Position numbers and translations under genes: made by a program. From a virus, in IMG/VR virus record IMGVR_UViG_3300020037_003876: a stretch of DNA of 36,621 nucleotides; one strand, written 5' to 3'. Shown here piece by piece: positions 27,209 to 27,897 of the stretch; the stretch's first letter is position 1, and the number at the start of each line of letters is the position of its first letter. The notes under the pieces were generated by a model that had not been told where the DNA came from, made no database searches, and saw nothing but the letters and a program-made list of their open reading frames with translations.

Positions 27209-27351
27209 CTAACAATTAAGGCGGCTGGGCTTGATACCAGCTCCGGGCTGCTAATGTACTGAGCTACATTCCGGTTCCTCGTGACTTTATCTCAGTTTGC
27301 ACCAAGCGTGTCCTTACGGTTTTATCCTCCACGCCGCGCCTTAATTGTTAG
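27209..27351. repeat. Element B1, closed by a perfect 15-bp helix.
   Basis: ctaacaattaaggcg (27209-27223) pairs with cgccttaattgttag (27337-27351). Inner hairpins: 27224-27241, 27253-27270 and 27306-27334. Confidence 0.75.
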
Positions 27352-27373
27352 CCATCCGTATCGTGGATGAGAC

Positions 27374-27490
27374 GTGTTAGTGACCGGAGCTGGTACTATC
27401 CCGGCATTCCCGTTTCTTGATTGATCAGACCAAGCGCAAGGCAAGTACCCACCTCAAGGCACGTCAGCTTAATCGTGCATTCACTAACAA
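27374..27490. repeat. Module I', the second copy of module I.
   Basis: tgttagtga (27375-27383) pairs with tcactaaca (27481-27489). 27459-27492 is 34/34 identical to 27077-27110, and 27374-27392 is 18/19 identical to 26992-27010. Confidence 0.75.
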
Positions 27491-27618
27491 GTCATGTGCT
27501 CTAAAGGCGAAAAGCGGTTCCGGTATCTTGGACAGTCCAAAGGGCGTCAGGCACTTTGACCCTACGCCCTGCCGGTGCGACCTTCTCGGCTTGTAATAAG
27601 AGCACATGCTTCTTACTG
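27482..27618. repeat. Hairpin IIb.
   Basis: cactaacaagtcatgtgctct (27482-27502) pairs with agagcacatgcttcttactg (27599-27618). Confidence 0.7.
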
Positions 27619-27625
27619 CTGCATT

Positions 27626-27708
27626 CACTAACAAGAAGAGACTAATGGGCTTACATTCCCCTTCGATCAAAAGACCTCCGCTAATGCCAAAGTCTCTTCT
27701 TCTTAGCG
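27626..27708. repeat. Hairpin IIc.
   Basis: cactaacaagaagagac (27626-27642) pairs with gtctcttcttcttagcg (27692-27708), 15/17 bp. Confidence 0.7.
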
Positions 27709-27715
27709 CTGCACA

Positions 27716-27897
27716 CTAACAATTAAGGCGGCTGAGATTGATATCAGCTCTAGTACCCCGCGTCAATAGCGCCTATCAGGTAGGCCGGGCTTCGTCGCAT
27801 ATCCTGCGCTTACTGGTTTCCGACCTGTTACCCTTCGCGTAAATTGCTCTAGCCTTGCTCTTAGGCGTGTCCTTCCACGCTGCGCCTTAATTGTTAG
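27716..27897. repeat. Element B2, with the same 15-bp closing helix as B1.
   Basis: 27716-27730 pairs with 27883-27897. Hairpins gctga/tcagc (27731-27748) and gcgtg/cacgc (27865-27880). Confidence 0.75.

Follow-up and report, generated by a model that had tools for sequence, protein, structure and literature searches.

The locus described here raises the question of what two elements, B1 and B2, which have identical ends and unrelated middles, are doing in the genome of a lambdoid-type phage. This genome (IMG/VR record IMGVR_UViG_3300020037_003876, a stretch of 36,621 nucleotides hereafter called the window) had been read before from its letters alone, and that sequence-only reading proposed that both elements are closed by the same perfect 15-bp helix. 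The coordinates and ends that it gave are exact: the 15-mer CTAACAATTAAGGCG closes both elements and is found at 27209-27223 (+), 27337-27351 (-), 27716-27730 (+) and 27883-27897 (-), exactly four sites in 36.6 kb, no further site being present in the window even if two mismatches are allowed (chance expectation, 0.07; none of 100 shuffles reached four matches). The G-C to A-T double change reported in the inner hairpin is real, with GCTGG-GCTTGATA-CCAGC in B1 versus GCTGA-GATTGATA-TCAGC in B2, and related contigs display a third state of this hairpin (GCCGG/CCGGT). The loop of the GCGTG/CACGC hairpin does measure 19 nt in B1 and 6 nt in B2, and the middles of the two elements are indeed unrelated. 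Read on the minus strand, the interior of B2 is made up of a GCGUG-GAAGGA-CACGC hairpin, a structured middle of 110 nt and a GCUGA-UAUCAAUC-UCAGC hairpin. What had been overlooked is the array in which the elements lie, its strand, the existence of related loci and the role of the element boundaries as recombination joints.

B1 and B2 belong to a chain of modules, about ten in number and each closed by a helix, that fills 1.4 kb without genes. We put at about one half the probability that they are copies of one module type in an undescribed family of co-transcribed, helix-closed structured RNA modules, which would punctuate or stabilise transcripts and whose shared boxes would also be recombination joints. 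The family appears to be restricted to a small group of lambdoid-type phages, where it occupies accessory intergenic regions, and the host of these phages is most likely Nitrosomonas.

Architecture of the module array

The array spans window positions 26992-28205 and is read on the minus strand, like the phage genes that flank it. In this direction the order is H, G, a tRNA-like element, B2, C, D, A2, a small hairpin, B1, E and A1 (Table 1). Modules H, G, B, C, D and E (and F in relatives) point inward: they fold on themselves and their closing helix starts with a pair of shared boxes, 5' CACUAA(C/G)AA and 3' UUGUUAGUG. A module-specific helix runs inward from these boxes for 15 bp in B and for 10-12 bp in C, D and E, and the duplexes amount to 15 bp in B, 19 bp with mismatches in G, 6+3+10-12 bp in C, D and E, and 21 perfect bp in a C' module of a related contig (L142). 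Neighbouring modules are joined by a 7-nt spacer, AAUGCAG, which could alternatively form a 6-bp mini-hairpin with its boxes. The outward slot between UUGUUAGUG and the next CACUAAC contains the spacer alone, the body of module A, the tRNA-like element (in the window) or a two-piece transfer-messenger RNA (tmRNA; in the related contig L081). Module A, located in this outward slot, has the reversed arrangement, UUGUUAGUGA...UCACUAACAA. Within the window the box motif is restricted to the array region, where eleven copies of alternating orientation are found in 1.2 kb.

Module H begins 2 nt past the stop codon of a 130-aa gene. The core helix of D is 10 bp long (CAUGUGCUCU/AGAGCACAUG), that of E is UGUUGAUA/UAUCAACA, and C is about 97% identical in L001, L138, L139, L147 and L148. 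Inside A2, a GCACG-AUUAAGCUGA-CGUGC hairpin is followed by a body that varies and by the 3' hairpin CCGG-loop(CAGCU)-CCGG. The small hairpin that precedes B1 is also found 5' of B in L138, L149 and L219. A three-codon mini-ORF (AUG-CAG-CAC-UAA or AUG-CAC-GAU-UAA) can be read on the minus strand at the spacers (27200-27208 and 27619-27627) and at the starts of A (27094-27103 and 27476-27485); it is probably incidental, and the variant of the spacer between B2 and C does not keep it.

Related loci

Pattern scans and BLAST revealed 16 related contigs, viral or metagenomic, in which these module types are combined in other ways (L001, L066, L081, L082, L137-L144, L147-L149 and L219), besides near-identical copies of the window (L151-L154). 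The modules are co-oriented with the flanking open reading frames (ORFs) in every locus, in at least six gene contexts, among them the nin region, the lysis region, sites upstream of small secreted proteins and the backbone of a low-GC phage. A grammar governs their order: a small hairpin, which is optional, then B, zero or more hairpins of the C/D/E/F type, and A. Each contig carries at most two copies of B, whose orientation with respect to the genes and order with respect to the other modules are constant, and the B copies found measure 121-182 nt. A and B hardly vary at their ends, and their interiors, which are structured, belong to at least six unrelated types each. Across unrelated phage backbones, the low-GC contig L066 among them, module A keeps a near-invariant 5' end of 31 nt and a near-invariant 3' end of ~30 nt. 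A conserved noncoding stretch of ~200 nt with promoter-like and hairpin motifs was also observed in L001 (2641-2848) and, downstream of A, in L137, L139, L140, L147 and L148; it lies upstream of small secreted protein genes and might represent either a moron promoter region or a further regulatory RNA.

Outside this group, no Rfam 15 family matched the whole window at the gathering score or positions 26500-28700 at E <= 10, where the only hits were chance-level microRNA and small nucleolar RNA models, and ARAGORN detected no tRNA or tmRNA in the window; at the related loci the two tools found nothing except the L081 tmRNA. BLAST returned no match for the noncoding region 26800-28210 or for window positions 1-25000 among GenBank phages, and none for 26950-27950 among plasmids. 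Dispersed copies, for which the sequence-only reading had suggested a search, did not turn up in the collections scanned, IMG/VR for the B 15-mer and the species genomes for a marker of module A: the B 15-mer has one true multi-copy locus in IMG/VR, in a single contig, and IMG/VR pattern scans for hairpin 1 of B and for the 3' hairpin of A recovered only L081 or chance matches. The module motif strings occur in no paper of the searchable literature, in which nothing relevant was found on Nitrosomonas phages in connection with attC or noncoding RNA either.

Gain and loss of modules at the shared boxes

Phages gain, lose and swap modules, small ORFs and stable-RNA genes at the shared boxes, which thus form the joints. 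B is joined straight to A in L143, and the otherwise nearly identical L147 and L148 have C inserted between two copies of UUGUUAG (B-C-A). An ORF of ~95 codons is inserted at UUGUUAG in L137. L154 corresponds to the phage of the window minus positions 27635-28026 (the tRNA-like element, B2 and C), with a box-to-box join at UUGUURG, such that its module G is followed by the spacer and then by module D. Finally, the flanking genes of L214 are 93% identical to those of the window, but H is the only module that L214 has at this site; its homology to the window ends exactly past the UUGUUGG of H and restarts 1.5 kb further on. The location of these junctions at the box, together with the lack of most modules in L214, shows that the array is accessory and has been built and eroded by exchanges at the box.

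Remnants of an internally deleted endolysin gene (MKLSDKG..LWEGVA) were also seen beside the module regions of L138 (3829-3888), L001 (6896-6950) and L149 (about 2115-2172), a sign of frequent illegitimate recombination in the module-bearing phages.

Evidence of selection on structure and choice of the strand

The modules fold far better than shuffled sequence, with z-scores ranging from -3.2 in A2 to -5.7 in E (Table 1). The sequence-only reading had called for covariation in homologues, and compensatory change was found there: over nine distinct copies, 4 of 25 conserved pairs in the B ends are doubly changed and 98.7% of the cells are paired. The covariation score is reached by none of 500 shuffles, and every control in which the pairing was slid falls to 24-43% paired. 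The double changes concern the closing helix (U-A to C-G), hairpin 1 (G-C to U-A) and two pairs of hairpin 2. The closing helix of B is perfect (15/15) in seven of the nine distinct copies and has bulged bases in none of them, and the orthologue of B2 in L138/L149 (93% identity) has compensatory changes as well. The ends of A likewise have 4 of 25 pairs with double changes, which come from L081 and from a divergent A' copy of L138/L149. A 5-bp helix in the body of A takes three forms in three phages (GCAGG/CUUGC, GCUUG/CAAGC and GAUGG/CCAUC), more compensatory changes are found in the middle of B2, in D and in C, and the inner hairpin of D has been swapped in L154 with its pairing retained.

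Several loop and spacer sequences are conserved too (GAAGGA, UAUCAAGC, AUUAAGCUGA and AAUGCAG). Such conservation of loops and spacers is unexpected for mere DNA palindromes and favours the folding of a single strand. A loop-loop pairing within A, AGCUG(A)/(U)CAGCU, is possible in all the copies, but it is invariant and displays no covariation. It bears on the contact once proposed between the cttaat loop of module A and an ATTAAG of B, which is not supported in that form: that strand of B is locked in the perfect 15-bp helix, and the same loop of A (AUUAAGCUGA) has a nearer partner, CAGCU, in the loop of the 3' hairpin of A itself. Hammerhead and twister cores were looked for by eye; the CUGA(N)GA and AAGC motifs fit them poorly, the Rfam models are silent and these candidates were rejected.

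The minus strand is most likely the one that matters biologically, and it is favoured by the co-orientation of the modules with the genes at all loci. The one-sided changes in conserved helices are mostly G.U on this (sense) strand, as in module H of L214, where an A-to-G change makes a G.U wobble. The sense strand folds as well as the antisense strand or better in 15 of 18 distinct copies, by a slight energy margin; for B1 the z-score is -4.9 when the minus strand is folded and -4.3 for the plus strand.

Genomic setting and host

Table 1. Coordinates of the array modules and of neighbouring features in the window, in minus-strand order
Feature	Position	Strand	Folding z-score	Remarks
O-like replication initiator	29220-30134	minus		
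Two small genes	28601-29230 and 28206-28598	minus		
Module H	28111..28205	minus		long hairpin; boxes UCUAAGAA / UUGUUGG
Module G	28028..28103	minus		closed by CUAACAAAUCAGCACA / UGUGCUGUUUUGUUGG
tRNA-like element	27928..27995	minus		68 nt; between the UUGUUGGUG box and the CUAAC box of B2
Module B2	27716..27897	minus		182 nt; 15-bp closing helix
Module C	27626..27708	minus	-4.9	bounded by CGCUAAGAAG ... CUUGUUAGUG
Module D	27482..27618	minus	-4.5	bounded by CAGUAAGAAG ... CUUGUUAGUG
Module A2	27374..27490	minus	-3.2	closing helix UUGUUAGUGA/UCACUAACA
Small hairpin	27352..27369	minus		CAUCC-ACGAUAC-GGAUG; directly 5' of B1
Module B1	27209..27351	minus	-4.9	143 nt
Spacer AAUGCAG	27200..27206	minus		between boxes UUGUUAGUG and CACUAAGAAG; second copy at 27619-27625
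Module E	27100..27199	minus	-5.7	bounded by CACUAAGAAG ... CUUGUUAGUG
Module A1	26992..27108	minus		first 34 nt equal to a Nitrosomonas CRISPR spacer
Sigma-70-like promoter match	26865..26894	minus		consensus match only; the sole one in the region
NinB-like, RusA and DNA methyltransferase genes	25558-23322	minus		terminase and portal genes come next

Every gene in the neighbourhood of the array is on the minus strand, with the replication genes on one side of the array and the nin-type genes on the other, and no credible ORF is present between 28205 and 26813. The promoter match listed in Table 1 lies downstream of A1 and upstream of a 68-aa ORF (26606-26812). A promoter and terminator scan found no promoter-like site and one weak terminator-like site inside the array, fewer than in shuffles, and the spacer and the boxes, considered as candidate promoters, have no consensus match. 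In the light of this lack of promoter-like or convincing terminator-like sites, the array is probably read through from the replication genes. The scanned ORFs of the window comprise no integrase, other site-specific recombinase or transposase; they include a RecE-like exonuclease as well as RusA/NinB-type functions.

Three further features of the gene complement were observed. Near a Cro-like gene, the opposite strand (31128-31928, +) codes for a pentapeptide-repeat protein of 266 aa. The DUF4942/DNA methyltransferase block (23322-24836) is missing in the close relative L214 (compared over window positions 22714-24828), another accessory indel. In a more distant phage, a transposase gene of the IS630 family (DDE_3; L215, 5327-6364) disrupts the homologue of the window's 130-aa gene; this transposase has no relation to the modules.

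The host was approached through a 20-mer of module A, which was compared to one genome per species for 185,579 species. The single match is a spacer in an array of clustered regularly interspaced short palindromic repeats (CRISPR) with 37-nt repeats, located in a Nitrosomonas metagenome-assembled genome (Nitrosomonas sp. MAG CP45, NZ_QPHG01000014; L135 4518-4551). The spacer is identical to the first 34 nt of A1 over 34/34 positions, and the cas1-cas2 genes beside the spacer array are of type I-C. The trinucleotide directly 5' of the matching protospacer in the L138/L001-type phages is TTC, the canonical protospacer-adjacent motif of type I-C systems. This spacer match makes Nitrosomonas, an ammonia-oxidising bacterium, the most likely host of the module-carrying phages, and links a set of uncultured phage contigs to that genus. 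As the marker of module A is found in the 185,579 species genomes only as a CRISPR spacer, the family does not seem to be dispersed in bacterial chromosomes.

tRNA-like and tmRNA pieces in the arrays

In the tRNA-like element of the window, a 7-bp stem that resembles an acceptor stem (GCGUAGU/GCUACGC) is combined with a hairpin of 5 bp and a 7-nt loop, a UUCGAUU that looks like a T-loop, and ACCA encoded at the 3' end. The element has no D arm, its folding z-score is just -0.76, neither ARAGORN nor Rfam calls it, and it is missing from the deletion variant L154. In L081, positions 3426-3751 encode a phage-borne permuted (two-piece) beta-type tmRNA with the tag ANDEVYDNRLAA, which served as a positive control (136 bits with tmRNA_permuted and 128 bits with beta_tmRNA). 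This tmRNA sits between the UUGUUGGUG box and B; an E-type module ending in CUUGUUGGUG precedes it, and modules B and A come directly after. T-arm-like sequences were also noticed in or beside modules of L066 (GGGUUCGAUCCCC; 4660-4750, minus) and L219 (GGCAGGUUCGACCCCUUCC; 2880-2915). These observations suggest that pieces derived from tRNA or tmRNA recur in the module arrays.

Two more specific proposals were rejected. The idea that the tRNA-like element of the window is a decayed acceptor piece of a tmRNA found no backing in its alignment to the L081 tmRNA, which is not significant. Homology of the modules to the pseudoknot domain of tmRNA was considered because Escherichia coli ssrA shares UUGUUAGUG and GCGUGGAAG, but the antisense strand is equally rich in shared 9-mers and 19 of 500 shuffles reach the same count.

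Weighing the possible explanations

Under the reading that we favour, the array would be transcribed on the minus strand along with the replication and nin-type genes, and its modules would act in cis as RNA punctuation. The near-perfect duplexes of 15-21 bp and the conserved single-stranded spacers may be processed, for instance by RNase III or RNase E, may shield 3' ends, or both. Such processing or protection would separate and stabilise the products of adjacent accessory genes and stable RNAs, and the shared boxes would supply the short homologies for the modular exchange that the indels reveal. If the modules are RNA, they would be an unusually clear natural case of "Lego-like" structured RNA, with a fixed boundary grammar and interchangeable structured bodies, into which stable-RNA genes (tmRNA and the tRNA-like element) also fit. 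These modules would belong to phages that infect a nitrifier of environmental importance, about whose phages hardly any biology has been described. If true, the array would be a concrete case of short conserved folded motifs that organise both transcript processing and the modular shuffling of genomes; if the elements are merely recombination linkers, they would be a modest addition to phage mosaicism.

Several points weigh against this reading. Transcription, processing and strand are all things that we infer from the sequence. The count of wobble versus A.C events favours the sense strand modestly (about 8 events against 3, the three A.C cases all being at helix ends), and in B the antisense minimum free energy structures hold as many G.U pairs as the sense ones. 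The covariation comes from few independent lineages, with 9-10 distinct copies per module and most double changes contributed by L081 and L138, and the kinship of the sequences inflates the shuffle statistics; the evidence of covariation for a selected structure may therefore be called good, not overwhelming. Closing helices of 15-21 perfect bp in which wobble pairs are almost lacking would be more usual in DNA inverted repeats than in classical functional RNAs, and near-invariant ends beside replaced interiors would also fit linker DNA homogenised by recombination. Finally, the array is dispensable, the closely related phage L214 doing without it.

One alternative would keep the RNA and change its mode of action: the modules would be stable small RNAs, cut from a polycistronic precursor, that act in trans instead of punctuating in cis. 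They would sequester a host factor (such as one that handles tRNA or tmRNA) as sponges or decoys, or would act as other regulators. Lambdoid phages often carry tRNA genes at this location of their genomes, so that the ORF-free array stands at the usual place of such genes; the two-piece tmRNA and the tRNA-like pieces obey the same grammar, the hairpin loops are conserved and the ends of module A hardly vary between unrelated phage backbones. Yet no similarity to an Rfam family was detected at E <= 10, L214 lives without the array, no conserved partner protein gene accompanies the modules and the free replacement of interiors would be odd for a specific trans-acting RNA. We consider this explanation unlikely. 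A sponge of the CsrA type, suggested by the GGA in loops, was rejected separately, the sense strand having 28 GGA per 1393 nt versus 15 per kb genome-wide on the same strand, an unconvincing enrichment.

Another possibility is that the modules are recombination sites, used as folded single-stranded or palindromic DNA by a tyrosine recombinase, attC-like or other, in which case the array would be a stack of tiny cassettes. The core site could be either box-spacer-box, UUGUUAGUG-AAUGCAG-CACUAAGAA (9-bp inverted arms around a 7-bp spacer), or the B hairpins. The core sites of lambda Int, Cre and Xer consist of arms flanking a short spacer, and box-7 nt-box has this tyrosine-recombinase geometry. 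Every observed gain or loss junction lies within a (U)UGUURG box, a cassette-like behaviour shared with integron attC sites and their GTT-containing box; the ends are conserved and the interiors replaced; and attC sites, which are also folded hairpins with imperfectly conserved ..YTAAC / GTTRG.. ends and a variable centre, display structure-preserving substitutions as well. The B ends (..CTAAC...GTTAG..) are indeed near the R''/R' boxes of attC: in B1 (GGCTAAC...GTTAGTG) and B2 (GACTAAC...GTTAGTG) the R'' consensus RYYYAAC is matched at 6/7 positions, but the R' consensus GTTRRRY at just 5/7, its third R being T and its Y being G. The length of attC sites, roughly 57-141 nt, is overlapped by the range of B at its upper end only.

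The attC reading had been put forward from the sequence together with that of miniature inverted-repeat transposable elements (MITEs), and neither fares well at this locus. The perfect 15-bp helices of B lack extrahelical bases as well as an unpaired central spacer. In the 36.6-kb window, the stretch that was scanned, neither IntI nor attI nor Pc was found, and no integrase or site-specific recombinase is encoded; the modules abut without ORFs between them; and the same boxes also bound modules that do not look like attC, a tmRNA and a tRNA-like element. The interiors, with their conserved loops and their own covarying multi-helix structures, would be superfluous in such sites, and short-homology recombination by the RecE-type system of the phage would explain the junctions without a dedicated recombinase. 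Site-specific recombination is thus a minority possibility, and an unlikely one, that is kept alive by the attC-like sequence of the boxes, the box-7 nt-box geometry and the box-precise junctions. Improbable, in our view, is a version that combines it with RNA genes: a phage-borne cassette system in which modules, the tRNA-like element, two-piece tmRNA and small ORFs would be exchanged site-specifically at a GTTAG core on folded single strands. It would be integron-like with no linked IntI, and would rely perhaps on a host integron integrase or on an unrecognised phage enzyme.

Much less credible is the hypothesis that B1 and B2 are MITEs, or derivatives of the IS200/IS605 type, that transposed into the phage. 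Their perfect 15-bp terminal inverted repeats, variable interiors, two copies in one genome and insertions adjoining a fixed sequence, UUGUUAG, would agree with it; however, no target-site duplication is seen at any B copy (the flanks of nine copies, such as GG|..|TG, GA|..|TG and AG|..|TG, have no common direct repeat), the window encodes no transposase, nothing points to dispersal (the family marker, a 20-mer of module A, had the CRISPR spacer as its sole match among the species genomes, and neither the phage databases nor plasmids gave any), and the B copies keep their limited number, single orientation and fixed order. That a DNA-binding protein recognises the 9-bp boxes (as operators or as sites of partition or replication), the hairpins being incidental, is equally remote, since, for all that eleven copies alternate beside the replication genes and both half-sites change together in L081, modules of other phages adjoin lysis or unrelated genes, the helices run far past the boxes in module-specific sequence and internal hairpins unrelated to the boxes covary.

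Comparison with known systems

The favoured reading, co-transcribed RNA modules that would punctuate transcripts, can be set beside several described systems. The RNase III hairpins of the phage T7 early mRNA and the processing stems of rRNA operons are co-oriented, have long lower stems, with a duplex of about two helical turns in the RNase III type, and enclose stable RNAs. The modules resemble them in being co-oriented and intergenic, in their long lower stems, in stems that enclose stable RNAs and in their recurrence within one phage genome, but their sequences are unrelated, their interiors are swapped and they stand in tandem without genes between them. The REP/BIME and ERIC elements and the Correia elements of Neisseria are also comparable, being intergenic elements of 100-180 nt with terminal inverted repeats that are co-transcribed and potentially processed. 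Unlike them, the modules are not dispersed in the host genomes searched, have no target duplication, keep a fixed orientation and order and are confined to a few related phages.

Among phage systems, the PeSL cassettes of T4-type phages are short conserved stem-loop motifs, intergenic and repeated in the genome, which flank accessory ORFs and serve as exchange points between otherwise unrelated sequences (PMC2839356, PMC4122927), just as the indel junctions fall here at UUGUURG. Nevertheless, PeSL are small composite terminator/promoter motifs, whereas the modules have no promoter or terminator consensus, measure 75-180 nt, contain several helices, belong to several types and are arranged by a fixed grammar in an ORF-free array of 1.4 kb, in a phage of lambdoid type with a different host. 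The stable-RNA clusters and two-piece tmRNA genes of phages (PMC9004378) offer another likeness. None of the modules is a tRNA or a tmRNA according to ARAGORN or Rfam, which distinguishes the array from such clusters, but it shares with them an ORF-free stretch of structured RNA, tRNA-like pieces and, in one relative, a permuted tmRNA.

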